Assembly: GCF_004010195.1 (NCBI RefSeq)
Contig: NC_057718.1
Location: 79,826,944 to 79,890,943 of the forward strand
From: Chiloscyllium plagiosum
Taxonomy: Eukaryota
DNA length: 64,000 nucleotides
Reading direction: 5' to 3'
Shown here one piece after another: positions 1-62,515 of the stretch; position 1 is the first letter of the stretch; each line of letters starts with the position of its first letter. Under the pieces are notes generated by a model that had not been told where the DNA came from, ran no database searches, and saw only the letters and a list, made by a program, of their open reading frames with translations. Made by a program: the position numbers and the translations under genes.

Positions 1-128
1 TCCTGATGAAGGGCTTTTGCCCGAAACGTCGATTTCGCTGCTTCTTGGATGCTGCCTGAACTGCTGTGCTCTTCCAGCACCACTAATCCAGAATCTGGTT
101 TCCAGCATCTGCAATCATTGTTTTTAAC
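1..128 (+). mobile_element. Short Penelope-derived terminal fragment with hammerhead motif (cut by window edge)
   Basis: CTGATGA-A-GGGC-TTTT-GCCC-GAAACGTC at 3-30, then the tail ...CCAGCATCTGCAATCATTGTTTTTA, which recurs inverted at 7033-7156. Confidence 0.8.
3..30 (+). ncRNA. Minimal type-I hammerhead ribozyme motif (family A)
   Basis: CTGATGA at 3-9, an extra A, stem II GGGC/TTTT/GCCC, GAAA at 23-26, then CGTC with GUC as the cleavage triplet. Confidence 0.7.
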
Positions 129-334
129 CTTGATATTTTTACAGGTACAGGTTTTCCAATAACTGCCTATACTGCTGTTTTTCTGTCAGACCACTCTGAA
201 TCTGGAACAAAATGCCGAACGGATGACAGGTCTATGGTAATGATGATTGATGATACAATCTGGCTATTAACATAATGGCTATTAATCCCATATAACACAA
301 TCAATATCATTATCACCAAACTTCATTTAAAAAT

Positions 335-560
335 GGTAACTGTCGCAGCATTCTTGCCACTGAGTCAAGAGATTGTAGGTTTCCATCTCATTCCAGAGAC
401 TTGAACTCATAATCTTTTGGATGAGACTGAAATCATGTTTGGGCTCTTGGATAAACATAAAGGATTCCTTTCAGAGCTCAATGTGTAAAGACTACCAAGA
501 ATTTTTGGTAGACATTGAAATTGTTTCTATTTCAGTCAGTATCAACATCAAATATTCTCA
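335..560 (+). mobile_element. Highly decayed tRNA-derived SINE remnant (DeuSINE/SacSINE-like)
   Basis: CTTGCCACTGAGTCAAGAGATTGTAGGTT...CCAGAGACTTGAACTCATAATC...GGATGAGAC resembles the head and core of old chondrichthyan SINEs (recognised from memory). Confidence 0.4.
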
Positions 561-650
561 AGTCAGATGTAGTACAGATATAGACAGTTTGCTACAAAGT
601 CAACCCAGAAAAGTCCCATTTGCTGCATCACCATTCCATTTTGTCTGGTC

Positions 651-748
651 TCTGATGAAGAGGCTTATGCCCGAAACGTCGATTCTCCTACTCCTCATAT
701 GCTGCCTGACCTGCTGTGCTTTTCCAGTGACACGCTTTTAAACTCTGA
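651..748 (+). mobile_element. Short Penelope-derived terminal fragment beginning at the hammerhead motif
   Basis: CTGATGAAGAGGCTTATGCCCGAAACGTC at 652-680, followed by the family tail GATTCTCC...GCTGCCTGACCTGCTGTGCTTTTCCAG. Confidence 0.8.
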
Positions 749-1382
749 GTAAAATAACCAATTAATGCCACATTCTGTTGTGTAGGTCTATGCCACTAGG
801 TACCAGAATGATGCCAAACTAATTTCACAAGTGAACTCTAAGTTTGACATGTCTCCAATTCCCTCACTGTGCGTGCAGTCAGGGTAAGACGGAGGGGAGA
901 GTTAATGCCTTATTTCAAATCTCTATTTCAAATTACCCGGCTTCAGGCACAGCATGGCTGCCTGCCTCAAAGGCATATGTTAAATTCAACTATGGCCTCC
1001 AGTCCACCAGAAAAGATCCAACTCCTGATTAAAAAAAAATCCAGGGAAGAACCAGAGGATGCCTTTGACGTCCTTTCACCTGAATCTCACCAGGGCCTCC
1101 CACCCTCCAGCAAACTGATCTTGCTTTGCTAAGGGCTGTTTCAGTGTGTTCCTCGCCGCACCCTATCCTCCAATCAATTTTGCTCTTTGCCTGATGCAGG
1201 TAGCATGATCTTGCATTCATCAATTTATAGATATTGCCTCAGGCAGTTTATAGGTACCTCTATTTTATGAAGTTCTTATAAAGAACCAAACGTGTTAGAT
1301 AATTTTAATGAGTTTATAATTTCCTGGTCTTGGAACCTGAGTCAATTGTTAAATCATTCATATCTGGTTAAAAATCACATAA

Positions 1383-1499
1383 GCTGAAAATGTGTTGCTG
1401 GAAAAGCGCAGCAGGTCAGGCAGCATCCAAGGAACAGGAGAATCGACGTTTCGGGCATAAGCCCTTCTTCAGGAAGCATCTGCAGCCCTCGCTTTCTCC
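1383..1499 (-). mobile_element. Short Penelope-derived insertion with a 15-bp TSD, nested in a second Penelope terminus (about 1368-1620)
   Basis: TTAAAAATCACATAA is duplicated at 1368-1382 and 1500-1514. An intact minus-strand motif CTGAAGAAGGGCTTATGCCCGAAACGTC lies at 1445-1472, and a short inverted piece ends the insertion. Confidence 0.85.
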
Positions 1500-4071
1500 T
1501 TAAAAATCACATAACACCAGGTTATAGTCCAACAGGTTTATTTGGAAGCACTAGCTTTCGGAGCACGACTTCTTCACCAGTTGGTTGTGGAGTATAAGAT
1601 TGTAAGACACAGAATTCATATCTGGAATGTTACACAGTCACACTTTGTCAAACTCAGTGAACATTTTGCAAGCTAAATTGCTGTTAGTTCTGATTCAGAA
1701 CAGGAAGAACTATCCTGGAAAGATTCTAATGAATGTCATAGAAATACATTGCAAAACCTAACAAGAGGATTAGAGAAAACTATCTTGTTTACCTTCTACT
1801 ATCTTGGTAGCGACCACTTCAACCAGTAGTGGAATTGTAGAACAACCATGCAATTAGTCAATTAATGTAAACCAGATGCAAAAGGGACTCTTATGGCTCA
1901 TTCATATTGTCCCCTGGACCAAGAGATTTAGGTTCAAGTTCTACCTGCGCCAGAGATGTATAATACCATCTCTGAACAGGTTGATTAGAAATATAGATTT
2001 TAGAAAAAAGATCCAGATGCTACAACAGGAAAACACTCAATATTGGAAAATCACTTGCTTCTCCCAAGCATGTTACACTTACCTGCCACACCTCAAATTT
2101 CTTCTATGCTGTATCCTAAAATATTACTTTCTGAAAATTTAAATTTCAATCATCAAATACTAACTGCATTTGACATTTATGAGAGAAGCTTTTTCAAGAG
2201 ATTGAACACTTACAGAAATAGCTGGTAAAGGTTCCCAGCTGCTAAAAGAAGTGGGTCATGGTGATATATTTGGGAAAACCAGGTGAAACACCTAACAAGG
2301 ACATTCTCAACGTTGAGAAGTAAATATCTCATTTTCCAACCAAGTGTTAGATGGCCCGAGTCAAGATTCTTTCTAGTGTGTGCCAAAAGGCCTCTTTGCA
2401 AGGTTGATTACTGCTTCTTAGTCACCTTCGGTAATATGCTGTTTCCCATTCTTCCACTGACTGGATAGAAACTGGATGATGACAAATCCCAAAATAAAAG
2501 TCAGGGTGGTTACCTAGCAACTCCAATTCACCTCTGCATCTCCATCTTGGATGCTTAGCCCCAACATCTCACGACACAATCCGCGTGCAATGAGCATACA
2601 AATTCCATGACCACAGACATTGGTATCTGACACATACCAGCCTCGCTGCCTCATCATGGCACATCATTGATCTATTTACCATATGTTTTTGCACTTCTGT
2701 GCTGTACTTTGGAGCACAACAACAGGTTTCATTAGAATGCTGCTGTCAGGACACTATGTGCAGGACAGGTATCTATCTCATGGATTTGTCACTCTCTTAG
2801 CACTCACTCACTTTGTGCCTACTTCAATGCTCACAACATTGCTGCTTTCTGATGAGATTGGAGGCAAAATGCTGAGATGTAGAGGGGATTACAATTGTGA
2901 AGGGGTGCAACTAAGTAGATAAGTGGTCGAGACAATCATTCAATTAAATAACAAGCGCACAATGGAGATGAACATAGTTGTGCCACAGTCAGAGTGGGTA
3001 GGTTAAGTCTTTCATTCCATGAGGGAGGGGGTTTCAGTTACAATTGTAGTGAGGCCCTTAAAAGGCAACAGTGTTACACAGACTTCCATTCACTAAAACT
3101 AAAATACTGCTATGGGCACGTTATTTTATGTGAACCCATGGCATTAACCTACAATTCAGAGTCCAAATCCTTGTCCCTAGCACTCTTGATGGCCATATTA
3201 TGCAACTTTATGAAAGAATCCCATTAATGGCTGTGCTGCACTCACAGTATTTAGGTGCCTGGAAAGAATGACCCTAATTGCCAAAGTAGATATCATCCTC
3301 CAGTTCTCATATTCTGCACATGGTGCAGGAGCTGCTTATTTCATACCTTGGACCATAAAACATTGTGCAGAGCTAGGAACAGCTATGCTCTGACCCTCCA
3401 ACGTTGTAATTGCAGTGAGATAGACATTTACACTGATGAAGAAAAGTGAACATATATTTATAAATGTTATAACATATTTATACTGACGTGTTTTCGGAAA
3501 TCTTGTTTCCCTCTTCACAGTGGGATCTTGGTTTCCATAGCTGAGGTGGTGGGAGCCTCCCTCACAGTGGTTTTCTTGTTTTGGTCAGGCAACTCCAGGA
3601 GCATTTGTGTCTAGAGGGCCCAGACATGTTGTGTGTGTACTGCCTTGAGACAGGTGCATTCCCCTCCACACAGGGCTGAGGGTGGAAGTATTGGCCACCT
3701 CTGGAGTATTCTGAGAATAGAGTTCATGGGGCCTGTTTAAGGGTTGTCCTTCAGTATGGTTCCTATTGGCACTGCCATGTCTCCTAGTGAGGAAGGACCT
3801 GCAGTGAGGTCAAGGTCCCTGTTCCTCTGTCGCCTTGCTCCAATGGTTAGACCTATGGAGTGTGGCACTGTGCACATATCCAAATTTCAAATGAAGATTT
3901 GATACTTTCCACAAGCAAAGAAGGAAAACAGAAGTGACAGAAGCTTGAAACACTTGTGCAGCTCATATTAGGCAGTTCAGGGGTATCAGTTGCTAGTCTG
4001 ATTTTAGTTCAAGAAATATAAAACATACAAGAATTACATCAAGAGGAAGCTAACTTGCCATTTGTAGCAAT

Positions 4072-4737: not shown

Positions 4738-4862
4738 GGAGAAAGTGAGGTCTGCAGATGCTGGAGATCAGAGCTGAAAATGTGTTGCTGGAAAAGCGCA
4801 GCAGGTCAGGCAGCATCCAGGGAACAGGAGAATCGACTTTTCGGGCATAAGCCCTTCTTCAG
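4738..4862 (-). mobile_element. Short Penelope-derived insertion with a 7-bp TSD
   Basis: TATTTTA at 4731-4737 and 4863-4869. On the minus strand the insertion starts exactly at the CTGAAGA of the hammerhead motif. Confidence 0.85.
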
Positions 4863-7032: not shown

Positions 7033-7231
7033 TAAAAACAATGACTGCAGATGCTGGAAATCAGATTCTGGATTATTGGTGCTGGGAGAGCACAGCAGTT
7101 CAGGCAGCATCCAAGGAACTTCGAAATCGACGTTTCAGGCAAAAGCCCTTCATCAGCTGAGCTGGAAGTTTAGAACTAGGGTGAGGTGGGGAAAGGGGAA
7201 ATGAGGAAACTGTTGAAGTTTACATCCACAT
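7033..7231 (-). mobile_element. Short Penelope-derived insertion into the Gypsy pol with a 17-bp TSD
   Basis: TAAGGTAGT(A/G)AAGTTGG at 7016-7032 and 7232-7248. Minus-strand hammerhead motif CTGATGAAGGGCTTTTGCCTGAAACGTC at 7129-7156. Confidence 0.85.
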
Positions 7232-14185: not shown

Positions 14186-14671
14186 AAGACAGGACCAAGA
14201 AACTGATTGGAAGCTAACAGGGAAAATTCAGTGACTGAAATGATCATTTAAACATATAAATGCCTGCAGCAAATTTCCTTAAGCTGACAGTGGAGCAATA
14301 ATAAACTTATGCACAAAACTGTGTTGAGACTACAGATAAAGATATCAGTGAGATAGAGAGACCTGACTTATTCAAGACATTGCTCAAGCTGATAGGCCTC
14401 AGTCCGTTGCATAGGAATGTAGAACAGTCAGATCCAAAATTGGTTGGGATACTGAGAATGATTATCATAGCCAAAAAAAGCTGAGTTTCAGGAAAGAGGA
14501 GAGCATGAACAAAAGACATTGGAGATGAAGTTGAAAACTAACATGACAGCAAAATGTCACTGAGGGAATTAACTACACTACTGGCAAATATTTGGTTATG
14601 TCCTAGGTACTCTGCACAGAAGGTCAAAGCAGTTTAAGCAGACTGGAAAACAGGAAAGAACCAGATGTCTC

Positions 14672-15350
14672 ATTCAGCCACCTCCAAACAGACCCCACCA
14701 TTGAGAATATATTTCCCTCCCTTCCCCTATCAGCGTTCCGGAAAGACCACTCCCTCCGCGACTCCCTCGTCAGGTCCACACCCCCCACCAACCCAACCTC
14801 CATTCCTGGCACCTTCCCCTGCAACCGCAAGAAATGCAAAACTTGCGGCCACACCTCCCCACTCACTTCCCTCCAAGGCCCCAAGGGATCTTTCCATATC
14901 CGTNNNNNNNNNNNNNNNNNNNNNNNNNNNNNNNNNNNNNNNNNNNNNNNNNNNNNNNNNNNNNNNNNNNNNNNNNNNNNNNNNNNNNNNNNNNNNNNNN
15001 NNNNNNNNNNNNNNNNNNNNNNNNNNNNNNNNNNNNNNNNNNNNNNNNNNNNNNNNNNNNNNNNNNACCTGCAATCTTCTTCCCGACCTCTCCGCGTCCA
15101 CCCCCTCTCCGGCCTATCACCCTCACCTTAACCTCCTTCCACCTATCGCATTCCCAATGCCCCTCCCCCAAGTTCCTCCTCCCTACCTTTTATTTTAGCC
15201 TGCTTGGCACACCCTCTTCATTCCTGAAGAAGGGCTTATGCCTGAAACGTCGATTCTCCTGCTCCTTGGATGCTATCTGACCTGCTGCGCTTTTCCAGCA
15301 ACACATTTTTCAGCTCTGATCTCCAGTATCTGCAGTCCTCACTTTCTCCC
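14672..15350 (+). mobile_element. Penelope-like element 3' part (GIY-YIG region and terminal hammerhead), spanning an assembly gap
   Basis: HLQTDPTIENIFPSLPLSAFRKDHSLRDSLVRS...GTFPCNRKKCKTC. Hammerhead motif CTGAAGAAGGGCTTATGCCTGAAACGTC at 15224-15251. Confidence 0.88.
14904..15066. other. Assembly gap
   Basis: Run of N. Confidence 1.
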
Positions 15351-15749
15351 TCTTTTCATAGGTATCCCATTTGAGTTTCTCCCTGTAACGTGCTAAGTGG
15401 ACCTTTACTGTTCTTGATGCATTTTGAAGGTTTGTTTCTCCTATTACTGGCTATAAGAGGCTTTTTGAGACAGTGTTTGATGGATTCTCTGAATGAGTTT
15501 TCTGTTCAGAGATGTTTCTTTCGCAGTAGCAGCTGTTCACTTCTAATTTCCAGGTTCACTCTGAGCGGCCACAGCCAAGCGCTCGTTATGATGGGAGGGC
15601 ATTGGTGAGTGAGTGTGAGGGATCTATCCACTGGGCTTAACCGTGCTTTGCTTTTGTTGTTCTTGTTTTTTTGTTGCTTCTGCTCCTGGAGCAGGGAGGG
15701 ACATTTAAACTCAGTTTGTATAGAGGCTTCTGCAGTTGCGGCCTGAGCA

Positions 15750-26052: not shown

Positions 26053-26243
26053 TATAGTCAGAAGTCACACGACACCAGGTTATTGTCGAACAGGTTTATT
26101 TGAAATCACAAGCTTTCGGAGGCCACCTGACGAGGGAGCTACGCTCTGAAAGCTTGTGATTTCAAAGAAACCTGTTGGACAATCACCTGGTGTCGTGTGA
26201 CTTCTGACTTTGTCCACCCCAGTCCAACACCGGTATCTCCACA
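26053..26243 (+). mobile_element. Fold-back Penelope-derived mini element with hammerhead motif (family B)
   Basis: Inverted arms about 26056-26118 and 26147-26209. CAC-CTGACGA-GGGAGC-TAC-GCTCT-GAAA-GCTT-GTG at 26124-26158. TSD TCA(T/G)TCCTGTG at 26042-26052 and 26244-26254. Confidence 0.85.
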
Positions 26244-34156: not shown

Positions 34157-34481
34157 GAGAGTGTGGTGCTGGAAAAGCACAGCAGGTCGGGCAGCATCCG
34201 AGAAACAGAAAATCCACATTTCAGGCAAAAACCCTTCATCACGAATGAGGCTGGGTGCTTTGGGGATGGAGAGATAAATGGGGGGCGAGTGGGCCTTCCC
34301 CCAGGCCCACCCCCTCCCATTTATCTCTCCACCCACGAGGCTCCCAGCCTCATTCCTGATGAATGGCTTTTGCCTGAAACGTCGATTTTCCTGCTCCTCG
34401 GATGCTGCCTGACCTGCTGTGCCTTTCCAGCACCGCACTCTCGACTCTAATCTCTAGTGTCTGCAGTCCTCACTTTCGCCT
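34157..34481 (+). mobile_element. Fold-back Penelope-derived insertion in the Gypsy protease
   Basis: Inverted arms about 34157-34290 and 34300-34442. Hammerhead motif CTGATGAATGGCTTTTGCCTGAAACGTC at 34356-34383. Confidence 0.88.
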
Positions 34482-37740: not shown

Positions 37741-38325
37741 TTTAAAATAAAACCTTAAGTTAACTCGAGAATGTGACTTAAAAGAAGTTCTGAGATTAAC
37801 ATATTAATGAACTGAAACTTGCAACCCATTCTAAAAGATGAAGGACCTAACAGCAATTTAGGTTTGTTCAAAATACCATTTCAGTTGCATGACACTGTAA
37901 TCTTTTGCTATAAAAAACTAGAGGGCACAGGTTTCGGTTGAGAGGGGAAAGATCTAAAAGGCATCTAAGGGGCAACCTTTTCATGTTGAGGGTTGTGCAT
38001 GTGTGGAATGAGCTGCCAGAGGAAGTGGTGGAGGTTGGTACAATTACAGCATTTAAAAGGCATCTGGATGGGTATATGAATAGCAAAGGATTAGAGGGAT
38101 ATGGGCCAAGTGCGGGCAAATGGGACTAGATTAAGTTAGGATATCTGGTCGGCATGGACGAATTGGACCTAAGGGTTTGTTTCCGTGCTGTGCAATCTCT
38201 ATGGCTTTATCCCTATTGTGATCCTGTTCCACAGCTACCTGATGAAGAAGCAGAGCTCTGAAAGCTAGTGCTTCCAAATAAATCTGTTGGACTACAACCT
38301 GGTATTGTGAATTTTAACTTTGCCC
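37741..38325 (+). mobile_element. Penelope 3' terminus (family B hammerhead at 38239-38267) interrupted by a CR1 3' end (~37915-38210)
   Basis: Reverse complement of 30690-30900. CTGATGAAGAAGCAGAGCTCTGAAAGCTAGTG. The CR1 piece encodes WNELPEEVVEVGTITAFKRHLD. Confidence 0.85.
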
Positions 38326-39046
38326 ATCAATCCATTCAATCTTCCTTCCCACCCATCCACTGTCATCACTATCAATACTACCTTTTCCTCAAAGCTCTCA
38401 CTCCTGAAGAAAGTCACTGGGTTCAAAACATGAACTCTGTCTTTATCCAACAATGCTGCCAGACCTGCTCAGTTGCTCCAGTAAGATCTGTTTTTGTCCC
38501 ACAAGTTCTGCTTATTTGGGAATTAATTTGTGATTAAGGTTGGTGATAGTAAAGTAAAATGTCAATCAGAAACATATGAATGACTTTGATGTTGCGTGCA
38601 GACTTTGATCTAACAGCTTCATTCTATACCATAGAAAGTAAATCTTGGAAACCGCGAATGTGCATTTCACCCTGTTGAGCATCTTCAGCACCATTGCTAA
38701 CCATGATCATGTTTATATTATCCTTTTACACAAACAATGACATTGTTGAGTTGGCTGACTCTTCTCTCAATGTCTGACAAGATTGAAAATAGAACCTTCT
38801 GGAATGTGTCAGATGCTGAACTTGGTAACATTTTGAAAGCATTCTATGGTTTGAACATATTCCATTGTGAGCAACAAAAGCTGCAAAATATCAGGTTTTC
38901 TCTGCTAGTAGTGCCTGAAGATACCGCCATTGCATGCTGAGCTTTGAAGATTATGGAGTCAAAAATGTTCCTGATAGTTCTTGGAGTGTAGGAATTGGAT
39001 ATATATCTGGAATAACTGCTTTGTTAACCACCTTATGTTGACTAGG

Positions 39047-39235
39047 CGAAAGTGAGATGCAGATGCTGGAGATTAGAGTCGAGAGTGTGGTGTCGGAAAA
39101 GCACAGCAGGTTAGGCAACATCCAAGGAGCAGGAGAGTCGTTGTTTCGGGTAAAAGCTTCCTGATGAAGGGCTTTTGCCAGAAATGTCGACTCTCCTGCT
39201 CCTTGATTGCTGCCTGACCTGTTGTGCTTTTCCAT
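39047..39235. mobile_element. Fold-back Penelope-derived mini element
   Basis: Inverted arms flank the hammerhead motif CTGATGAAGGGCTTTTGCCAGAAATGTC at 39161-39188. Confidence 0.85.
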
Positions 39236-39795
39236 CTTACATTGACACATAGTCTCAGTTTGCCACTTTTGAGTCATGCAATCATTTGGTTCAGTGTGCA
39301 TGGGATTAAGTTAATTCACTTAGTCAAATGTCTCCTTCAAGTCACTTCAACTCATAACACTTTAACAAGGATTGCCAATGGCAACCATCCAAAATTTTGC
39401 TAAACTGGTTAAAATAAATTGTCGACCAATAGAGCATAGCAGGACACCTTAATCTCTTCAAATCCAGAAATAAGGAAAGATGCAGTTGTACATTGTCAGT
39501 GTCATCCATCATGTTAATTTGTACTCTGGTGGGATCTTCAATTTTGAAGCCAAGCTCTTTGAGAAGTTTTATTCCCCACAAGGTTTCTGCCTCTGGCTAC
39601 ATAGAACATGAATCTTGCACACTAGAATTACAATCATTCTCAAAACCGACATAACCAAGCCATTGTAAACTGGAAGTGTGTCTGTCACAGGAGTAAGAGA
39701 AAGTTATAAAAAAAATGATAGCAGTATTGAATGTTCAATTTAGTTTTGTACCAATATCATTGAGGAGGAACATTTAGATGTTTGTGATCTTGAAT

Positions 39796-40812
39796 CCTAA
39801 CAGCTACCTGGACTACACCTCCTCCCATCCTGCCCCCTGTAAAAACACCATCCCATTCTCCCAATTCCTTCGACTCCGCCGCATCTGCTCCCAGGAGGAC
39901 CAGTTCCAAAAACGCACATCCCAGATGGCCTCCTTCTTCAAGGACCGCAATTTCCCCCCCGACGTGGTCGACGATGCCCTCCACCGCATCTCTTCCACTT
40001 CCCGATCCTCCCCCCTTGAATCCCGCTCCTCCAACCGCCACCAGGACAGAACCCCACTAGTCCTCACCTACCACCCCACNNNNNNNNNNNNNNNNNNNNN
40101 NNNNNNNNNNNNNNNNNNNNNNNNNNNNNNNNNNNNNNNNNNNNNNNNNNNNNNNNNNNNNNNNNNNNNNNNNNNNNNNNNNNNNNNNNNNNNNNNNNNN
40201 NNNNNNNNNNNNNNNNNNNNNNNNNNNNNNNNNNNNNNNNNNNNNNNNNNNNNNNNNNNNNNNNNNNNNNNNNNNNNNNNNNNNNNNNNNNNNNNNNNNN
40301 NNNNNNNNNNNNNNNNNNNNNNNNNNNNNNNNNNNNNNNNNNNNNNNNNNNNNNNNNNNNNNNNNNNNNNNNNNNNNNNNNNNNNNNNNNNNNNNNNNNN
40401 NNNNNNNNNNNNNNNNNNNNNNNNNNNNNNNNNNNCCACAAGGGATGGACTCGGATTTCACCAGTTTCCTCATTTCCCCTCCCCCCACCTTGTCTCCGTC
40501 AAATCCATCAAATTCAGCACCGCCTTCCTAACCTGCAATCTTCTTCCCGACCTCTCCGCCCCCACCCCAGTCTGACCTATCACCCTCACCTTGACCTCTT
40601 TCCACCTATCACATTTCCGACGCCCCTCCCCCAAGTCCCTCCTCCCTATCTTTTATCTTACCCTGCTGGACCAACTTTCCTCATTCCTGAAGAAGGGCTA
40701 ATGCCCGAAACGTCGATTCTCCTGTTCCCTAGATGCTGCCTGACCTGCTGCGCTTTTCCAGCAACACATTTCCATCTCTGATCTCCAGCATCTGCAGACC
40801 TCACTTTCTCCC
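39796..40812 (+). mobile_element. Young Penelope-like element 3' part spanning an assembly gap
   Basis: SYLDYTSSHPAPCKNTIPFSQFLRLRRICS...DRTPLVLTYHP. Intact hammerhead motif CTGAAGAAGGGCTAATGCCCGAAACGTC at 40687-40714. Confidence 0.92.
40080..40435. other. Assembly gap
   Basis: Run of N. Confidence 1.
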
Positions 40813-42544: not shown

Positions 42545-44875
42545 GAGATGTGTGTGCATAATATGATGAAATTCTTCATCATGATGGAAAATGAGGTAGT
42601 TGATTCTGAGACTAGACTCCTGAATATTAATAAGGGAAACTATGATGTTATGACGTTTGAGTATGCTGTGATGGATTGGGAAATGTTTCTGAAAGGAATG
42701 ACAGTGGATAAGCTCCGGCAAACATTCAAAGAGCAAACAAGTGAATTACAAAAATTGTTTATTGCTATCTCGTGCAAGAGTGCAAAGAGGCCAAATAATA
42801 GCTTACAATTGAAGTTAGAGATAGTATTAGAAGCAAACAAAAAGGCATACAAATTGGCAAAAAAAAAGACCTGCAGACTGGGAATATTTTAAAGTCAATA
42901 AAGGAAAACAAAGAGATTTATTAAGAAGTGAAAAAAATGAGTGTACGAAAGTGAGAAATAAGAGTAAGCTTGTGGGGAACATAAGATCTGACTAAACGTT
43001 CCTACAGATATGTACAGAGAAAAAGACTGGTGAAAACTAATGTAGGTCCCTTACAGTCAGAAATGGGGAAATTTATAATGGGGGACAGAAAAATGGCCGA
43101 TGAACTTGATTCATCACTTTGGTCTTCACAAAGGAGGATATGAATAACATCAGAAATGGTGGGGAACACAGTGATTAGTGAAAAGGAAGAACTGGAGCAA
43201 ATCTATACATGTAGAAAATTGGTGTTGAAGAGATCAATGAAATTGAAGGCTAATAAATCTCCAAGGCCTGATTAAAAATACACCTCACAGTACTTAAGGA
43301 AATGGCTAGAAATATTGAATGCATTGGTAGTCATCTTCCAAGATTCTTTAGCCTCTGGAATAGTTCCTATAGATTGGAAGGTATCTAATGCAATGTATTA
43401 TATTTAAAAAGGGAGGTAGACAGAAAACAGGGAATTAAAAACAGTGGTAGTCAGGAAAACCCTAAAATCCATTATCAAGGATTCATCATTAGAGCACTTA
43501 AAAATAGTGGTAAAATCAGACACAGTCAGCATGGAATAACAAAAAGAAAATAATTCTTGACAAACCTACTAGAATTCTTTGAGGGTATACATAATAGGGA
43601 GATCCGTGGATGTGGTTTTATTTGGATTTTCTGAAGGCTTTTGATAAAGTCTCACCTAAGTGACTAATGTGTAAAATTAAAGCACATAGGATAGTGCATT
43701 TGGTTAGCATACAGGAGACAAAGTGTGGGAATGAAAAAGGCCTTTTTCTGAATGGCGCTGACTGGTGAGGTACCATAGGGATCGGTACTAGGACCCTAAC
43801 CATTCACAGTATATGTTCATTTAGAAGAAGGAGCTAAATGTAATATCCTAAAATTTGCAGATGACCTAAAGCTGAGTGGAAAGGTGAGGTCTGAGATTGC
43901 AGTGATCTTGCACTGTGATTTGGACAATCTGAGTGAGTGGGAAAATGCATGGCTGTTGCAGTATAATGTGGATACATGTGAGATTATTCAATTTGGTAAT
44001 AACAATAGGAAGGCAGATTGTTATGTGAAAGGTTGTAAATTGAGAGAGGAGGATGTTCAATGAGATTTGAGAGTCCTCATACACTAGACACTGAAAGTAA
44101 GCATGCAGGTACAACAGGCAGTAAAGAAGGCAAATTGCAGTTTCACCCTCCTAGATGCCATTATATTCAGCACTGGTGAGGTCACACCTGGAAAAGTGTG
44201 CACAATTTTGGTCTCTTTATCTGAGGTAGGATCTTTTTAATGTAGACGGAGATCAGTAAAGGTTTACCCCAAATTGATTCCTGGGATGGCAGACCTGATA
44301 TACGAGGAGAGATTAAGTTGTATCCACTGTATACACTGTTTGTATACACTGGAGCTTAGAGAATGAGGGAGGAATCTCTTCAAAAACTATGATTTTGGAA
44401 ATGATTTGTGAACAATCACCTGAAGGAGCTGCACTCCGAAAGCTAATGTTTCCAATTAAACTTGTTGCACTATAACCTGGTGTTATGTGATTTTTAATTT
44501 CAAAAACTATAGCATTCTAATAGAAATAGACAGGTCACTTGCAGAAAAGATGTCCTTGATGGTGAGCGAGTCCAGATCCAGGAGTCATAGGCTAAGGATT
44601 AGACGCAAATCTTTTAGGACTGAGATGAGAAATTCCTTCATCCAGAGAGTGGTAAGCCTCTGGAATCCACAACAGTAGAAAGTGGTTGAGGCTAAAACAT
44701 TGTGTTTTCAGGAAAGAGGTAGACATCACTATTATTGCAAAAGAGATCAAGGGATATGGGGCGAAGGTGGGATTAGGGTATTGAGGTTGATGATTGATTA
44801 GCCATGATCATACTGAATGGCACAGCAGGGCCCAGAGGTCAAATGGCATACACCTACTTCTTCTCTGTTTCTATT
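42545..44875 (+). mobile_element. Older CR1-type LINE (RT and 3' end) with a Penelope terminus inserted at ~44400-44500
   Basis: DFLKAFDKV-like and KFADD-like segments (43620-43870), and RTEMRNSFIQRVVSLWN. Confidence 0.88.
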
Positions 44876-49519: not shown

Positions 49520-51003
49520 TATACGACCGATAGGGTACCCTTCATTGTCCAGTACCTCCCAGGAGCAGAAAAACTTCGCCATGTTCTTCGTGCATGCAAC
49601 ACATTGTTGCTGAAGAAAAGCACCTCGCCAAGACCTTCCCAATGCCTCCACTTCGCAACAAACCTTAAATAGACCATTGTTTGCAGCACACTGCCCAGCC
49701 TTTAGGACAACATTAACCACAACACAGTACAACCTTGTCATGGCAACCGCTGCAAAATGTGTCAGAGTGTCGACACAGATACCAGCATTACATATCGGGA
49801 CACCACCCACTGTGTACATGGCAGATACTCATGTGACTCGGCCAATGTTGTCAATCTCATACGCTGCAGGCAAGGATGCCCTGAGGCATGGTACATTGGC
49901 GAGACCAAGCAGAAGCTACGATAACAGGTGAATGGACACTGCACAACAATCACCAGATGGAGTGTTCCCTCCCAGTGGGCAAACACTTCAGCAGTCTGGG
50001 ACATTCAGCCACACATCTTCAGGTGACCATCCTACAAGATGGACTTTGGGACAGGCAACAATGCAAAGTGGGCGAGCAGAGGCTGATGGCCAAGTTTGGT
50101 ACCCATGAGGATGGCCTCAACCAGGACCTTGGGTTCATGTCACACTACAGGTGACCCCATTACACTCTACACGCTCTCACAGGCACACGCAAGCACACAT
50201 ACACATACACTCTTATATTCTCACACACTCACGCAGACCCTCTCTAATTCACATGCTCTCTCTCATATACACACATATACACCCCCCACACTCACACTCA
50301 CATTCACGCACACACCCTCTCCAGGCTTATACCTCATCACACTCACACATATACTTTACCAAGCTTGCACACACGCAAACACACAGTCTCTCACATGCAC
50401 TCACATTCACACGCACACACTCACATGGTCTCTCTCTCTCACTCTCTATCCACACATGTAAGTCTATGGGGTGAATTTGTATTGCAAAATCATACTTGCA
50501 GATACATTCTATTTTGCTCAAAAATGCACAACCTGTAGGCAGTCAGTGCAGGCAATCAATCCATGGAACATTTTGTAAATTCCACTTTCGAAATAGAAGC
50601 AATCTGACTCAAGATTGAGACATAGACAGACTCTGACCTCACACCTTTAAAGTATTGTCTGAGCTGAGATGTCACCTTTTTTTTTTATAAAACCTTAAGC
50701 TATCTTGAGAATATGACTTAAAAGTTCTGGGATTTACATATTAATAAACCAAAGCCTGTAACCTATTCTAAAAGATGAAAGACTTAACAGCAATCTAGAT
50801 TCATTCAATTAATCATTTTACTTGCATGACACTGTAATCTTTTGCTATAAATTCTGTGTCTTACCGTCCTGCTCCACAGCTACTCGATGAAGGAGCAGTG
50901 CTTCGATAGCTAGTGCTTCCAAATAAACCTGTTGAACGAAAACCTGGTGTTGTGTGATTTTTAACTTTGTCCACCCCAATCCAACACTGGCCCCTCCATA
51001 TCT
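49520..51003 (+). mobile_element. Penelope-like element, second family (GIY-YIG and CA-rich 3' region)
   Basis: DRVPFIVQY and CPEAWYIGETKQKL. Mutated hammerhead at ~50884-50912. Opposite orientation to 30511-32107. Confidence 0.92.
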
Positions 51004-51593: not shown

Positions 51594-51630
51594 GACGTTT
51601 CATCCCTTGTCTAGGTGACATCCTCAGTGC
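51594..51630 (-). ncRNA. Hammerhead ribozyme motif (family C), truncated at its cleavage site
   Basis: Minus strand GCA-CTGAGGA-TGTCACCTAGACAAGGGAT-GAAACGTC. The sister copy at 53215-53255 has a GCA/TGC stem I but a mutated CTAAGGA core. Confidence 0.7.
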
Positions 51631-53330
51631 TTGGGAGCCTCCTGTGAAGCGCTTCTGTGATCTTTCCTCCGGCATTTGTAGTGGTTTGAATCTGCCGTTT
51701 CCGGTTGTCAGTTCCAGCTGTCCGCTGCAGTGGTCGGTATATTGGGTCCAGGTCGATGTGCTTGTTGATTGAATCTGTGGATGAGTGCCATGCCTCTAGG
51801 AATTCCCTGGCTGTTCTCTGTTTGGCTTGTCCTATAATGTAGTGTTGTCCCAGTCAAATTCATGTTGCTTGTCATCTGCATGTGTGGCTACTAAGGATAG
51901 CTGGTCGTGTCGTTTTGTGGCTAGTTGGTGTTCATGGATGCGGATCGTTAGCTGTCTTCCTGTTTGTCCTATGTAGTGTTTTGTGCAGTTCTTGCATGGG
52001 ATTTTGTACACTACATTGGTTTTGCTCATGCTGGATATCGGGTCCTTGGTTCTGGTGAGTTGTTGTCTGAGAGTGGCTGTTGGTTTGTGTGCTGTTATGA
52101 GTCCTAGTGGTCGCAGTAGTCTGGCTGTCAGTTTGGAAATGCTCTTGATGTATGGTAGTGTGGCTAGTCCTTTGGGTTGTGGCATGTCCTCGTTCCATTG
52201 TCTTTCCCTTAGGCATCTGTTGATGAAATTGCGGGTATCAGTTTTTGGCGAATACATTGTATAGGTGTTCTTCTTCCTCTTTTTGCAGTTCTGGTGTACT
52301 GCAGTGTGTTGTGGCCCTTTTGAATAGTGTCTTGATGCAACTTCTTTTGTGTGTGTTGGGATGGTTGCTTTTGTAGTTCAGGATGTGGCCTGTGTGAGTG
52401 GCTTTCCTGTGGAGAATTCACCACAAAGGTATACAGGAAAACCACTCACACAGACCAAGTCCTGAACTACGAAAGCAACCACCCCAACACACACAAAAGA
52501 AGTTGCATCAAGACACTATTCAAAAGAGCCACAACACACTGCAGTGCACCAGAACTGCAAAAAGAGGAAGAAGAACACCTATACAATGTATTCGCCAAAA
52601 ACGGATACCCCCGCAATTTCATCATCAGGTGTCTAAGGGAAAGACAATGGAACGAGGACATGCCACAATCCAAAGGACTAGCCACACTACCGTACATCAA
52701 GAGCATTTCCAAACTGACAGCCAGACTACTGCGACCACTAGGACTCATAACAGCACACAAACCAACAGCCACTCTCAGACAACAACTCACCAGAACGAAG
52801 GACCCGATACCTATCATGAGCAAAACCAATGTAGTGTACAAAATCCCATGCAAGAACTGCACAAAACACTACATAGGACAAACAGGAAGACAGCTAACGA
52901 TCCGCATCCATGAACACCAACTAGCCATGAAACGACACGACCAGCTATCCTTAGTAGCCACACACGCAGATGACAAGCAACATGAATTCGACTGGGACAA
53001 CACTACATTATAGGACAAGCCAAACAGAGAATAGCCAGGGAATTCCTAGAGGCATGGCACTCATCCACAGATTCAATCAACAAGCACATCAATCTGGACC
53101 CAATATACCGGTCACTGCAACGGACAGCTGGAACTGACAACCGGAAGCGGCAGATTCAAACCACTACAAATGCCAGAGGAAAGATCACAGAAGCGCTTCA
53201 CAGGAGGCTCCCAAGCACTAAGGATTGTCACCTAGACAGGGGACGAAACGTCTGCAACACAAATTCCCAACTCGGCGAACAGAACCACAACAACGAGCAC
53301 CCGAGCTACGAATCTTCTCCCAAACTTTGA
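51594..53330 (+). mobile_element. Young Penelope-like insertion with an ~820-bp inverted duplication and a 12-bp TSD
   Basis: ORF VYRKTTHTDQVLNYESNHP...NVVYKIPCKNCTKHYIGQTGRQL (RT thumb and GIY-YIG). Arms 51594-52410 and 52433-53252. TSD ATCTAAAAAAAA at 51582-51593 and 53331-53342. Confidence 0.95.
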
Positions 53331-56865: not shown

Positions 56866-56982
56866 GGCTCATGCCCGAAACGTCGATTCTCCTGCTCCTT
56901 GAATGCTGCCTGACCTGCTGCACTTTTCCAGCAACACATTTTCAGCTCTGATCTCCAGCATCTGCAGTCCTCACTTTTTCCC
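56866..56982 (+). mobile_element. Short Penelope-derived terminus starting inside hammerhead stem II
   Basis: GGCTCATGCCCGAAACGTC followed by the family tail. GGTTTCAGG flanks both sides as a probable TSD. Confidence 0.8.
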
Positions 56983-57259: not shown

Positions 57260-57752
57260 CTAGCCTCCATTGCCACAGTGAATCAGACCATAAGTTGGAG
57301 GACAATACCTCATCTTCCACGTCAGCAGCCTACAGCTCAGAGGACTCAACACTGAGTTCCCCAATTTCAAATAACTTTCTCATCCATCCCCCGACTCTCT
57401 TTCTAGCCCCGCATCCCTCCTTCTATCCCTCCGACCGACACCTCCTTCCAGCTACCAACTGGATTCATTCCTCCCATTGGCCTGTCTCTGTGCAGTAGGA
57501 CTCTATGACTCTGACCAACCAGGTCATACCCACCCTGTATTCACTTATCACTACCTTACCACTCTGCCCCTCTCCCCAACCATAACCCTTCCTTCCCCTT
57601 TCTCTTTATCTGCAACTCTCCCTACCTCCACCTCCATTCCTGAAAAAGGGTTATACCTGAAACATTAACTCCTCCACCTCCTGATGCTGCCAAGCTTGCT
57701 GTATTCTTCCAGCTTCCTGCTTGTCCACTCTGGATTCCAGCATCTGCAGTTT
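57260..57752 (+). mobile_element. Older Penelope 3' end with decayed hammerhead
   Basis: KLEDNTSSS region, a C-rich tract and CCTGAAAAAGGGTTATACCTGAAAC...CCAGCATCTGCAG. Confidence 0.75.
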
Positions 57753-58605: not shown

Positions 58606-58710
58606 GTTTCTGAAGACAGGTCACTGGACCTGAAAGGTTAACTCTGCTTTTTCTCCACAGATGTTGTCAGACCTGCTGAGTTTTTGATAGTAATTTCTGT
58701 TTTTGTATTT
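58606..58710 (+). mobile_element. Short terminal element with hammerhead-like motif (family D)
   Basis: CTGAAGACAGGTCACTGGACCTGAAAGGTTA at 58610-58640. Related copies at 62190-62290 and 38403-38500. Confidence 0.7.
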
Positions 58711-59230: not shown

Positions 59231-59236
59231 GGACTT

Positions 59237-59325
59237 CACCTGATGAAGGTGCAATGCTTCAAAAGCTTGTGATTTCAAATGAACCTCTTGGACTATAACC
59301 TGGTGTTGTGTGACTTCTGACTTTA
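59237..59325 (+). mobile_element. Penelope terminus, family B, beginning at the hammerhead
   Basis: CACCTGATGAAGGTGCAATGCTTCAAAAGCTTGTG (GAAA mutated), followed by the tail shared with 26150-26210. Confidence 0.8.
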
Positions 59326-59929
59326 TGTCAACACGAGAACAGATATAACCATGAAAGTGAGCATTGTAATTTATGATTCTCCCTATACTTAGCCATTGTT
59401 GAGATGACAGAAAGGGAGAAGCAGACACAAATTGATAAGGAAATACATTGGGCTTAAGTTTATTGTGCAGAAATGTTGAGTTTGGGAGCAGGTGGGTGGG
59501 AGCAGCTTAAAACTTTATAAATTGGCAACACAGTGCGAAGATGTTTCAAGCAGCTGACTACCATATTTAACTGCAATAGTTTAGACTACATGTGAACAAC
59601 TCTTCAGAAGGGGCCATTGGCCAATTTTCAATATATTAATCCCTCAAGTACAGTGACAATAATATGATTTTTACAATGTAACAGTGCATCAATGTTTTTC
59701 TGCACCTTCTTGGACCACTGAGAGCAAAGCTACAATACATCAATAATTGAGAAAGGTGCAGACAGACAGCTATGCCATTTGCTACTACTTTCTTGTGCTG
59801 AGATATCACTTGTGTCACTGATCTTCATTCTCAAACTCGAATCTGTCAGCTGAGAACTGATGTGGTTTACGTGATTTTCGTTTGAACCTCCTACAAGGAC
59901 TAAGATGATTAGTAGTTGTAACAAAACCA

Positions 59930-60700
59930 GCAGGAGCAGAAACAGCAAGAAGAATACCCACTTTGAGAACACTGGAATCAGTAGCACCACCAGCAGAAGC
60001 AGCAATGTCTGCTCGTCACAGACCTGCAACTCCTAGGAGAGGGGATTATCAAAAATGCAACTTAGAGGAGGCTACATCCTGTATGTAAATTCTACAAAAC
60101 AGAATATAGAATCTTTGCTATGTTGGAACACCAGTGTTTCAGGACCTCAAGCAAGATCATACCAAATGTTTGCAATCTGCTTGAATAAGATGTGCTTCAA
60201 GTGGAACCAGTGACCATGCTTTACCAGTAGGCTGGCAAAGTCAATAGTACATCAATGCCTTTGCCTTTGGATCCTTCCAGCATTCAGCAGGAAGCATTAG
60301 TAGGATCTTGCAGTTGGCAACCAATAAATGTGCAAGACATTTATGTGAGGTTAGCACTGCTGCCTCACAGCACCAGAGACCTGGGTTCAATTCCCGCCTC
60401 AGGCGACTGACTATGTGGAGTTTGCACGTTCTCCCCGTGTCTGCGTGGGTTTCCTCTGGGTGCTCCGGTTCCTCCCACAGTCCAAAGATGTGCAGGTCAG
60501 GTGAATTGGCCATACTAAATTGCCCATTGTGTTAGGTAAGGGGTAAATGTAGGGGTATGGGTGGGTTGCGCTTCGGCGGGGCCGAAGGGCCTGCTTCCAC
60601 ACTGTAAGTAATCTAATCTAATCTAAAAAAAAGTGATTGACTGCTCATTTGCCTGAGTCAGCATCTATGTTCACCTTGGCTGTGATGGCACCACTCAGAA
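59930..60700 (+). mobile_element. PIF/Harbinger transposase (HARBI1-like) N-terminal remnant, interrupted by a SINE
   Basis: 60200-60347 translates with frameshifts as HALPV/AGKV...NAFAFGSFQHSAGSISRILQLATNKC, matching the GSFQ...ISQ...C motif of Harbinger transposases. Confidence 0.6.
60349..60625 (+). mobile_element. HE1-type SINE (5'-clipped)
   Basis: B box GGTTCAATTCC, conserved core and (AATCT)3 tail. Confidence 0.92.
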
Positions 60701-60952
60701 TTAGTAAGCACCCAATCCAGCTCAGGCTGAATTCCTACACATACAAGATATTATTAACTGTACAGATGTGGCAATCAAGACATGCTCAGATTAACCTTTA
60801 AACATTTCACTTTATCCATGTGCAGCTTGTGCACAATTACAAAAGTATTTAGGTAGGCTACAATTCCTCGACAGAGGTCATGATATTTTTGACTTATGGC
60901 AGTGCACCCTCTCTAATTTCTTTGGTTCAAAGCAGATGTGTTCTTTGGAAGT

Positions 60953-61996
60953 TGTTATGATCAGACTTTGGGTGAAGTTCCCCTATTTGTTATGGTTCCA
61001 GATGGAATACCCAAACTGTTAATCTCCTGAGTGAGAAGTGTTGAATTGACCCGCTTTTTCTATTCACCAGCTCCCTCAATTGTTCACCAGATTAATTTTA
61101 AAATAATCCCTTCCCTTCTGGATACCTCTTCTCCCAGATACAAATGAACTTATATTTAAAAAGGAACCAATTCAACCAGACTTTCTTAACAAAAAGTGAA
61201 TTTATGAATTCCTAAAAACAACAAGAATTAACAATGCAACACACATGCATACATAAGAAATGAGTTGATTCAAAAGGATATAAGTTTTTTTTTAAGAAAT
61301 GGATCAGTCACTGAATTATTCAGAAAAAATGTACAGTTGAATGATGCAGCCATTGATGTTCGTGGTCGATTTCATGATCCCTGGTTTTGCAAATTGGCTG
61401 AGATTTTGTACTTTTGAATCCTTTTGATCAAAACCGAATTCCAGCATTCAGAATGAAACAGAATCCTTTTTTGCCCCTTTCCAACTTGTTTGGCTGCTAG
61501 GTAGGTGACTTCTGTCATCAGGGTGAGAGGTTCTTGACCTGCAATACAGGATGTAAGTGGGGGATACTTCTTCAACTGTGACCTTTCCTGCACACCTATA
61601 CTCACAGTCAGATGATAACACAAGCACATTCAATCTCACTAGCACACTCAAGTAGAATTAAAATTTACTTTTTAATCCCTGTACTTGATTATTCTTCAAA
61701 TGGAAAAAAATCACAAAAGTGTTGGCAGTTTAGGACATAATTTGCATCAGGCGGCTTGCTGTTGAGGAAGGAGTTTCTCAGACCTTTATTATTTTTGCAG
61801 TAACAAAAGATTACAGTCCCAACTGTTTGAAGCTTTTTTGACAACTATAGGTTTTATATCCCATTGGATTCAGACAGGTTTTTTTTTAACCACTAGCCAT
61901 CTTGAATTATTTTGTCTTTATAGCAATCCTATTTTAAAAGACAAATTTTGGAACTAAGGGCTAAGAACACCTCTAGAAGTCTGCAGGATCACAGCA
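60953..61996. mobile_element. Possible solo LTR
   Basis: TGTTATGATC...GATCACAGCA form imperfect inverted termini (8/10). No TSD. Confidence 0.3.
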
Positions 61997-62177
61997 CTCA
62001 TGTGTGAAATGAACTCATCAGTCTTTGTACGTGCACACAATGAGCTGGAACACCTGGCAGTATATCATATTGCTTCCTGCTGCAGCACAAATATTCCCTT
62101 TGTTGATGATTCCTAAGGTTCCTTACCAGGTGAGCAGAGCTTAGAGCATTCTATGGCCTCTGATACTGACTCTCCAT

Positions 62178-62515
62178 TCTGAAGAAGTTCTGAAGAAGGG
62201 TTGCTAGACCTGAAACATTAACTCCACTTTCTCTCCATAGAAGCTGGCAGGCCTGCTCAGTTTTTCCAGCATTTTCTGGTTTTGTCTCTCGATTGTTGTC
62301 TCTCCACCATTTCTGATGACGGGTTTTTGCCTGAAACATCGATTTTCCTGCTCCTCGGATGCTGCCTGACCTGCTGTGTTTTTCCAGCACCACTTTAACC
62401 TTGACACCAAACCCCTCAGCCTGCCTTCTGAAGCGTACTCCAGCACAACGACACGCTTGGTCGTGACTCTAATCTTGACTCTAATCCCTAGCATCTGCAG
62501 TATCCACTTATGCCC
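62178..62515 (+). mobile_element. Two adjacent short Penelope-derived termini, each starting at a hammerhead motif
   Basis: CTGAAGAAGGGTTGCTAGACCTGAAACATTA at 62190-62220 and CTGATGACGGGTTTTTGCCTGAAACATC at 62313-62340. Confidence 0.8.

Follow-up and report, generated by a model that had tools for sequence, protein, structure and literature searches.

Why should the core of the hammerhead ribozyme recur, in several sequence families, along a single stretch of shark DNA? The stretch in question, hereafter the window, comprises 64,000 nucleotides (nt) of Chiloscyllium plagiosum (RefSeq assembly GCF_004010195.1, contig NC_057718.1, positions 79,826,944 to 79,890,943 of the forward strand), and positions are counted below from its first letter. 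A preliminary description of this DNA had reported about 25 motifs in at least four families, among them A to D, and had assigned them to the termini of Penelope-like elements (PLEs). Our analysis arrives at a similar answer: with a probability of roughly 0.9, the motifs are minimal type-I hammerhead ribozyme motifs (min-HHRs) in the 3'-terminal, pseudo-long terminal repeat (pLTR)-like region of endonuclease-positive PLEs, and they belong to at least three unrelated lineages (A/D, B and C).

A loose pattern, CTGANGA-N6-30-GAAA, has 25 matches on the two strands of the window, compared with 6.88 ± 2.64 (maximum 14) in dinucleotide-preserving shuffles, none of which (0/100) attains 25. Families A to D account for 17 of these rows (16 distinct sites); the remaining eight, at 5693 (-), 8662, 17958, 25632 (-), 28674 (-), 32542, 38665 (-) and 42309, are at about the level expected by chance. 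A stricter descriptor (both core boxes, at most one extra nucleotide, 4 or more base pairs [bp] in stem II and a loop of 3–9 nt) has 14 matches, while 200 shuffles give a mean of 0.25 (standard deviation 0.49, maximum 2). Three of the 14 lie outside any family: 8662, 28702 (-) and 38688 (-). When a palindromic 15.2/16.2 pair, U16.1 and H17 are added to this descriptor, seven sites retain the palindrome along with all of the other features (shuffles: mean 0.01, maximum 1). A family-agnostic pattern, CTGANGA-N12-19-GAAACGTC, is matched eight times, with 0.01 matches expected.

Decayed copies were added by homology search and with a covariance model of family B; this model, built from family B alone, recovers seven B copies (E ≤0.0067) and is too family-specific for A, C and D. 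The resulting inventory comprises 27 sites derived from the four families (A 15, B 7, C 2, D 3). Most copies are mutated: both core boxes are unbroken in 16 of the 27, and six are fully intact (A at 3, 1445-1472 [-], 7129-7156 [-], 15224 and 40687; B at 26127). The earlier figure of about 25 is thus accurate as a number of family-derived sites and too high as a number of intact motifs. All 18 of the positions listed earlier are genuine members of families A to D, as judged from homology and a reading of their context, and the coordinates given then for the minus-strand copies at 1445, 4835, 7129 and 51594 are the low ends of those motifs. Many of the losses at 15.2/16.2 are changes of CG to TG or CA, which is the pattern of CpG decay. 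The sites are listed here by family, A1 and A2 being subfamilies of A; ORF denotes an open reading frame.

3..30 (+): family A (A2), intact, 5' side cut by the window edge
652..680 (+): family A, both core boxes unbroken, stem II bulged by a 1-nt insertion in its 5' strand; not among the strict-descriptor matches
1445..1472 (-): family A (A1), intact
4835..4862 (-): family A (A1), core and stem intact, 15.2 mutated (AG for CG), helix III palindrome lost
7129..7156 (-): family A (A2), intact, G-U at 10.1/11.1
15224..15251 (+): family A (A1), intact; the long copy that holds it (15101-15351) follows a PLE ORF remnant
29097..29120 (-): family A, degenerate (TTGATGA first box, stem 3/4, CA at 15.2/16.2), in the long copy 29242-28999, which follows a PLE ORF directly
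34216..34241 (-): family A, degenerate; head-to-head inverted partner of the copy at 34356 (long hairpin)
34356..34383 (+): family A (A2), core intact, stem II 3/4
39143..39157 (-): family A, partial copy in inverted orientation, its 5' truncation falling within the motif; adjoins the copy at 39161
39161..39188 (+): family A (A2), core intact, stem 3/4, TG at 15.2/16.2 (CpG decay)
40687..40714 (+): family A (A1), intact; the long copy that holds it (40561-40813) follows a PLE ORF remnant
56866..56884 (+): family A, 5'-truncated inside the motif (first core box missing); the unit reaches ~56990
57640..57663 (+): family A-like, degenerate (CTGAAAA, deletion)
62313..62340 (+): family A (A2), core and stem intact, CA at 15.2/16.2 (CpG decay)
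1552..1580 (-): family B, first box mutated (CTGGTGA); absent from the earlier list
26127..26155 (+): family B, intact (helix I CAC/GUG, 5-bp stem II, GC at 15.2/16.2); it occupies the loop of the palindromic copy 26056-26209
30681..30696 (-): remnant of a family B motif that retains the 5' half alone, ~700-800 nt downstream of a PLE endonuclease remnant
38239..38267 (+): family B, core intact, one stem II mismatch (4/5)
44421..44445 (+): family B, deletion in the first core box; absent from the earlier list
50886..50912, listed earlier as 50884 (+): family B, mutated in both core boxes (CTCGATGA; GATA); a PLE ORF remnant lies ~750 nt upstream
59240..59268 (+): family B, second box mutated (AAAA), stem 4/5
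51594..51627 (-): family C, core boxes intact, stem II 4/6 (family reference 5/6)
53218..53252 (+): family C, first box mutated (CTAAGGA, G-to-A), 1-nt insertion
58610..58639 (+): family D, core and 5-bp stem II intact, GG at 15.2/16.2
62190..62219 (+): family D, core and stem intact, CA at 15.2/16.2 (CpG decay)
38404..38420 (+): family D-like remnant, degenerate

In the window motifs the two hammerhead core boxes, CUGANGA and GAAA, follow the type-I order and are accompanied by a U16.1-H17 triplet. The four family references are given below as helix I, first box, extra nucleotide, stem II with its loop, second box, 15.2/16.2 and U16.1-H17.

Family A: UUC/GAU; CUGAAGA; A; GGGC-UUAU-GCCC; GAAA; CG; UC
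Family B: CAC/GUG; CUGAUGA; A; GGAGC-AGC-GCUCC; GAAA; GC; UA
Family C: GCA/UGC; CUGAGGA; U; GUCACC-UAGACA-GGGGAC; GAAA; CG; UC
Family D: (G/C)UU/AAC; CUGAAGA; A; GGGUC-ACUU-GACCC; GAAA; GG; UU

The cleavage triplets are GUC in A and C, CUA or CUU in B (the copy at 26127 carries CUU and the other B copies CUA) and GUU in D. An unpaired extra nucleotide follows A9 in all four references (U in C, A in the other three) and is required by 13 of the 14 strict-descriptor matches. G10.1-C11.1 closes stem II, of 4–6 bp, in 4/4 references; some copies have G-U at this position, and two D copies have A-U. The 15.2/16.2 palindrome is CG in A and C and GC in B, and there is no real helix III. CG is gone from both window D copies at 58610 and 62190, while other genomic D copies carry CG, TG or CA (the commonest D loop being ACUG). 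Covarying families, an extra nucleotide after A9, G10.1-C11.1 and a palindromic 15.2-16.2 are among the criteria described for min-HHRs, none of which the published search had imposed (PMC4209133); the min-HHRs of metazoan PLEs were defined in that paper (Cervera & De la Peña, 2014).

The preliminary description held that stem II differs in sequence among the families and yet remains base-paired, and it named the absence of such covariation as an argument against ribozymes. Covariation is present. MAFFT alignments across families were set aside because the stem lengths differ and the alignments were structurally wrong, and covariation was instead scored by a structure-aware script on the four references. 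Cognate strands pair at 15/16 outer stem II positions and 10/12 helix I positions, compared with 2.08 of 4 and 1.00 of 3, respectively, for non-cognate strands; the true strand assignment ranks first of 24 permutations (25 pairs versus a mean of 15.5). Since helix I was part of no search pattern, its complementarity (CAC/GUG, GCA/UGC, GUU/AAC, UC/GA) is an independent check. Within family A, the 28-nt motifs of A1 and A2 are identical at 26/28 positions and differ only at N7 and at one base of loop II, which are positions that the hammerhead leaves free; their flanks are 61% identical over 90 nt upstream and 79% over 58 nt downstream.

Further variants were read by eye in the genome listing. 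A C-related family (e.g. at C1:1228685-1228718) has stem II GUUACC/GGUAAU, with wobble variants; compared with the C stem (GUCACC/GGGGAC) this includes a two-sided change of C-G to U-A. Subfamilies of A with other loop II sequences were also seen. Neither the C-related stem family nor the other loop II variants of A occur in the window.

The motifs lie downstream of PLE coding sequence. When 33 PLE proteins were compared to the window by tblastn, seven ORF remnants were located, and each of the seven has a motif of family A, B or C downstream of it on the same strand:

14643..14903 (+): PLE ORF remnant, residues 713-791 of an 893-aa protein, running into the N stretch 14904-15066; then A at 15224
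29343..30525 (-): 5'-truncated PLE ORF with reverse transcriptase (RT) motifs and GIY-YIG endonuclease/C-terminus; then a degenerate A unit
31392..32103 (-): endonuclease remnant from a second type of PLE; then a B remnant
39718..40080 (+): PLE ORF remnant, residues 643-735 of a 930-aa protein, running into the N stretch 40080-40435; then A at 40687
49523..50136 (+): PLE ORF remnant, residues 710-858 of a 921-aa protein; then B at 50884
51841..52173 (-): PLE ORF remnant, head-to-head with 52402..53004; then C at 51627 (-)
52402..53004 (+): PLE ORF remnant; then C at 53218

The earlier proposal of minimal type-I hammerheads on Penelope-like termini is therefore supported for A, B and C (7/7 ORF remnants), the motif lying ~70-800 nt downstream of the ORF encoding RT and GIY-YIG in these families. 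Translation of the minus strand at 29-32 kb gives an RT-like frame followed by a GIY-YIG-like frame. Pfam has no RT or GIY-YIG match to the window's own PLE ORF fragments at E up to 0.1, so their identity was taken from pairwise alignment to full-length homologues. A 491-aa frame of one genomic copy (L006) has 34 protein matches at E ≤0.001 among 383 candidates, the best of them 889-930 aa in length. Two of these homologues served as references: P0020 has RVT_1 together with a GIY-YIG domain at the C-terminus, at 26.1 bits, above the Pfam cut-off of 22.6, and P0002 has the same arrangement with GIY-YIG at 20.8 bits, just below it. Window fragments align to residues 470-583 (54% identity, E 7e-42) and 771-883 (44%, E 4e-25) of P0002, and the second endonuclease type to residues 738-826 of P0020 (32%, E 4e-12). 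The fragments thus match both the RT and the endonuclease/C-terminal parts of RT and GIY-YIG proteins of 871-889 (~890) aa, and it is this architecture, RT with a C-terminal GIY-YIG, that is described as defining endonuclease-positive PLEs (PMC8557442).

The same arrangement is found elsewhere in the genome. The PLE ORF runs up to the A unit in 10/10 genomic loci fetched via the A-type element. Among 12 loci picked by the second endonuclease alone, five have an intact B core 550-750 nt after the endonuclease on the same strand, and three of the other seven contain large N stretches; for family C, the motif of genomic locus L025 is preceded, at a distance of 226 nt, by an ORF remnant. A Pfam GIY-YIG profile search over the 3.56 Gb genome yielded one weak match and was judged uninformative, 150 of 14,403 candidates having been scored. 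Both N stretches of the window (14904-15066 and 40080-40435) fall in the 3' part of PLE ORF remnants, upstream of long A copies, and large N stretches are common to several of the genomic PLE loci fetched.

Short and very abundant units such as these might also be short interspersed nuclear elements (SINEs) or the 3' tails of CR1/L2-type long interspersed nuclear elements (LINEs), with the pattern lying in a LINE 3' untranslated region (UTR) stem-loop. Besides their length and abundance, what speaks for such an origin is a peptide at 37950-38150, upstream of the B copy at 38239, that presumably resembles the C-terminus of a LINE ORF2. We consider this origin extremely improbable: the ORFs upstream of A, B and C motifs all encode RT and GIY-YIG rather than RT and apurinic/apyrimidinic endonuclease, and Rfam identifies no tRNA, 5S or 7SL head anywhere in the window. 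A LINE-tail origin of family B in particular was rejected, as 37916-38210 is a separate repeat and 40/40 scored genomic copies of it, leaving out the window's own, end before B starts; these copies cover only query positions 14-322, and most of them 17-311. The repeat itself is ~295 bp long (37916-38210, +), has 11,814 first-look candidates in the genome, with 40/40 scored copies, again without the window's own, 85-89% identical, and forms an insertion immediately 5' to the B copy at 38239. One of its frames we take to resemble the C-terminus of CR1/L2-type LINE ORF2.

The anatomy of the insertions was examined in the first 20 exact matches to the family A motif on contig C1, with their flanks; this sample is unbiased for flanks and conditioned on an intact motif, so that copies truncated inside the motif are excluded. 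Each A subfamily has two alternative 3' ends ~40 nt apart, which matches the optional 30-40 bp tail described as specific to PLEs (PMC11167929, PMC8557442, PMC3846280). Most copies are short units of ~120-160 bp with a 5' border 2-5 nt upstream of the motif. On the 5' side, eight of the 20 continue for at least 60 nt into the PLE 3' UTR, two stop at -37 and -17, five begin 0-5 nt from the motif, and five adjoin an inverted, 5'-truncated partner within 0-28 nt. Most family D copies begin 2 nt before the motif (query position 49), and in two longer copies (L003 and L004) the upstream unit begins at the 5' edge of the motif, behind an inverted partial copy. Target site duplications (TSDs) of 10-11 bp flank simple units in L062 and L051. 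The genome listings repeatedly contain head-to-head pairs in which the two motifs are intact and separated by only 5-28 nt, and the window has head-to-head pairs at 34216-34241 (-)/34356 (+) and 39143-39157 (-)/39161 (+), the palindromic B copy at 26056-26209, and the two C-bearing remnants. Tandem Repeats Finder returned four rows for the window, none of which corresponds to motif units.

This anatomy, in the window and in the genome, is the published insertion pattern of PLEs. Arkhipova (2013; PMC3846280) describes direct and inverted pLTRs, a 31-bp tail, TSDs of 8-10 bp and solo pLTRs, and in the Anolis element the tail is reported to correspond to two adjacent internal start sites of reverse transcription (PMC11167929).

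Two side observations concern these units. In families A and D (L044-L063 and L032-L043), their 5' borders concentrate 0-5 nt before the first core box, and the window units at 652, 4862 (-), 7156 (-) and 62313 show the same border near the motif. The head-to-head A pair at 34237-34361, together with 3' UTR sequence, forms a long near-perfect hairpin; it has weak Rfam matches to microRNA precursors (best 40.3 bits versus a gathering score of 100) and is not a known microRNA.

RNA reads were aligned to a consensus-like A1 copy (L052), in which the motif is on the minus strand and cleavage is predicted between plus positions 131 and 130. The reads came from run X19, a single-cell poly-A library with the same species label (1,861 reads from 12,955,460 records, ~2% of the run), and lie in both orientations, none having come from the sister run X20. 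Their loose ends pile up at 33/34 (the long 3' end), at 73/78 (the short 3' end) and at 162, which is 4 nt upstream of the motif; depth falls by ~84% across the border at 162, and 13 reads contain an inverted joint at 151/162. Borders in RNA and contig reads thus coincide with the unit borders, that is, both 3' ends and the 5' edge of the motif. Depth across the predicted cleavage site is smooth (579/387 before, 504/365 after), and no position was flagged as a common start or stop of molecules, in agreement with the report that Anolis RNA-seq has no read ends at the cut site (PMC11167929). The reads thus represent chiefly passenger RNA that derives from numerous short copies and has not been cleaved, a result that is weak because the library is poorly suited to detecting ends. 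Sequence words from the A1 unit (L052, G000:C1:350716-351073) are also present in runs X1-X14, which bear four organism labels, so the family is common to several species labels; contigs of one other organism label cover the A1 unit at depth.

These borders bear on the origin of the short copies, which might constitute a distinct non-autonomous lineage (of the solo-pLTR type, or resembling monomeric retrozymes) that is mobilised in trans by PLE proteins, as opposed to autonomous elements truncated at random from the 5' side. The RNA of such a unit would start 2-5 nt upstream of the motif and end at the PLE RT start sites; the proposal concerns only where the short copies come from and is compatible with their identity as PLE min-HHRs. 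A discrete 5' border, ~0-28 nt from the motif edge in 10/20 A copies (five simple and five with an inverted partner), is what such a lineage would leave, as are the start of most D matches 2 nt before the motif, the ~84% fall in depth and the pile-up of loose ends at the 5' border of the motif, and the upstream pLTRs of L003 and L004, which begin at the same place. Published work is favourable as well: pLTRs alone are described as mobilising foreign DNA in trans, with solo pLTRs in rotifers (PMC3846280), and retrozymes have been proposed to be pLTR derivatives (bioRxiv 10.64898/2026.07.22.740005). However, no tandem arrays of units occur in the window, the units are identical to the ends of ORF-bearing copies, so that no separate master lineage is evident, and the eight copies that reach at least 60 nt into the PLE 3' UTR, with the two intermediate ones, are what truncation predicts. 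Moreover, the 20-copy sample was chosen by an intact motif and left out copies truncated inside it. A separate lineage is a possible explanation for the short copies, though less likely than not.

Returning to the identity of the motifs as PLE-borne min-HHRs, several results weigh against it. Rfam hammerhead models have no match in the window at the gathering score, none of the 23 Rfam matches in the window at E up to 10 is a hammerhead, and no curated covariance model endorses the window motifs. The Rfam hammerhead families (types I, II, III, HH9 and HH10) share the core boxes and the type-I helix order with these motifs, which are without helix III; because the models expect this helix, the miss is an expected one. 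The model search proposed in the preliminary description accordingly fails with Rfam and succeeds with our own descriptor (14 matches versus 0.25 expected). Helix I is only 2-3 bp long, and that of family A has an internal U-U mismatch. The covariation comes from few lineages: A and D share a homologous tail, making the independent lineages about three, and the permutation test has a floor of 1/24. Family D is the least typical, with CG at 15.2/16.2 in only 2/12 genomic copies (a GG variant being commonest) and a PLE ORF upstream in 0/4 genomic loci, so that homology of its tail to that of family A is the only evidence of its PLE origin. When monomers were folded by minimum free energy, stem II was recovered in every family and helix I in C and D, with stabilities that do not exceed those of shuffles (z -0.25 to -1.14); unremarkable stability fits a motif unable to work alone, though it is no positive evidence. 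Finally, X19 has no pile-up of read ends at the cleavage site (in ~2% of the run and from a poly-A library ill-suited to ends), and no genomic copy looked at starts there, which means that cleavage does not define the ends of the units.

The last two results invite a different explanation, namely that the motif is kept for a role other than cleavage, such as an RNA signal for the RT/endonuclease or a marker of the template 5' end, its likeness to a hammerhead being a relic or parasitic. Borders at the 5' edge of the motif rather than at the cleavage site would suit such a role, as would several published reports: catalytic mutants of the Anolis PLE hammerhead insert normally in vitro, making cleavage dispensable for insertion (PMC11167929), and no Anolis RNA-seq ends map to the cut site (PMC11167929); hammerhead-free PLE clades proliferate well, and hammerheads "may simply parasitize PLEs" (PMC8557442); and the in vitro activity of min-HHRs is given as very low (PMC4209133). 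Against this, it is exactly the catalytic nucleotides that are conserved across lineages with unalignable flanks, while N7, loop II and the stems vary. The Anolis PLE hammerhead is reported to cleave, and C3G or G8C to abolish cleavage (PMC11167929), and a palindromic 15.2/16.2 is sensible only for pairing between two motifs. On balance we regard a non-cleavage role as rather unlikely.

Cleavage by PLE-borne min-HHRs could proceed as follows. Minimal hammerheads are said to cleave as dimers, a finding attributed to Lunse, Weinberg & Breaker. The hammerheads of PLEs are described as lying in pLTRs, with a dimer model and low activity (PMC4209133, PMC6765202). The palindrome A-CG-U or A-GC-U would let one motif pair with a second copy, and, by analogy, in transcripts carrying two sense copies (pLTR-ORF-pLTR tandems) two motifs may pair via the palindrome and form an extended helix III. 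The paired motifs would then cleave slowly after the NUH triplet. Reverse transcription would start internally at the two tail sites, and insertion would not need cleavage. The isolated and mostly decayed copies of the window would be inert leftovers of insertion, probably transcribed only as passengers of host RNA.

The preliminary description had extrapolated from one motif per 2.5 kb to a very large ribozyme load in the genome as a whole. Patterns were counted on both strands of the 3.56 Gb genome, with reversed patterns as controls:

Family A 28-mer: 52,878 genome-wide; reversed control 0
Family B 32-mer, three free loop bases: 14,834 genome-wide; reversed control 0
Family C 34-mer: 3,987 genome-wide; reversed control 0
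Family D 30-mer, CG form: 110 genome-wide; reversed control 0
Exact intact motifs, four families summed: 71,809 genome-wide; reversed control 0
CTGANGA-N12-19-GAAACGTC, core-intact ACGUC-type: 137,084 genome-wide; reversed control 264

As a motif count, the very large load is borne out (137,084 core-intact ACGUC-type matches versus 264 in the control). The density of one motif per 2.5 kb is correct locally (27 sites in 64 kb) and does not carry over to the genome: with the family-agnostic pattern, the genome has one match per 25.9 kb and the window eight per 64 kb, so the window is ~3.2 times richer and the local density is not to be extrapolated. Scaling by 3.2 roughly suggests a few hundred thousand remnants genome-wide.

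A broader claim would be that this is the largest vertebrate hammerhead load yet counted (>137,000 core-intact motifs and several hundred thousand remnants), and that its bulk is a discrete solo-pLTR-type unit of ~120-160 nt whose RNA starts 2-5 nt upstream of the motif and which is kept for template-end recognition or template switching in two-sided, head-to-head insertion, not for self-cleavage. Taken as a whole, we think this claim improbable.

The motifs are of the kind described in 2014 and occur here at a very high copy number. In the literature searched, no description of shark PLE hammerheads was found, although the supplementary species lists of the 2014 paper may include cartilaginous fish. 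As described in PMC4209133, the min-HHRs of PLEs share with the shark motifs the type-I topology, the same core boxes, G10.1-C11.1, a short helix I and no helix III beyond the palindromic 15.2/16.2; they form several covarying families per genome and are found at PLE ends, mostly as dispersed single motifs from truncated elements. The differences from that account are a cartilaginous fish as host, a stem II of 4-6 bp rather than the 7-8 bp of the Schistosoma families, and a copy number far above those given there (~9,000 in Xenopus and ~4,000 in coelacanth, counted with a different descriptor). Elsewhere, a maximum of 14,255 putatively active retrozyme copies is reported for axolotl in a 2026 preprint that sampled one chondrichthyan (bioRxiv 10.64898/2026.07.22.740005).

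Published accounts of endonuclease-positive PLE units (PMC3846280, PMC8557442, PMC11167929) are likewise similar to what is seen here: RT followed by a C-terminal GIY-YIG, a hammerhead near the 3' end, two 3' ends ~40 nt apart, head-to-head partners, TSDs of 10-11 bp and solo short units. In the shark, 70-800 nt separate the motif from the ORF stop before it, in contrast to the Anolis element, in which the motif overlaps the ORF start, and the concentration of 5' borders at 2-5 nt upstream of the motif has no counterpart in the PLE unit descriptions cited here, as far as these extend. Animal non-LTR retrozymes (PMC7229834; bioRxiv 10.64898/2026.07.22.740005) are also small, non-coding type-I units that are related to PLE pLTRs and occur as dispersed monomers. 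However, they are defined by tandem arrays and circular RNAs, and the window has no tandem unit array; the shark hammerheads are minimal, without helix III or loop-loop contacts, unlike those of non-LTR retrozymes.

For genome annotation, tens of thousands of "intact ribozyme" matches in this genome should be interpreted as the ends of retroelements rather than as regulatory devices of the host, and standard Rfam scans miss all of them. Comprising ~72,000 exact intact copies from several lineages, with families both young and old, the motifs form a very large natural data set in which one can ask whether selection keeps the catalytic positions of min-HHRs in active PLE lineages. They also bear on the purpose of PLE hammerheads: as in Anolis, neither borders nor read ends are found at the cleavage site, in contrast to the 5' edge of the motif, where the unit borders cluster.

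The window contains further repeats besides the motif units. An LTR-type retroelement remnant at 36307-37530 (+) has an RVT_1 match (E 6.4e-15) at 36985-37530, in which we take the motif pattern to be Ty3/Gypsy-like, and an integrase p58 C-terminal match at 36307-36648. A second RT remnant, at 17787-20435 (-), consists of three adjacent frames with weak to moderate RVT_1 matches (best E 2e-07) and is matched by none of the PLE proteins in tblastn. An 85-bp unit, unrelated to the motif families, is repeated 2.1 times at 48538-48712 with an 86% match. Lastly, an open frame at 33360-33671 (+) has a SCAN-domain match (E 9.1e-07, 29 bits versus a cut-off of 27) and may be part of a retroelement gag-like region.

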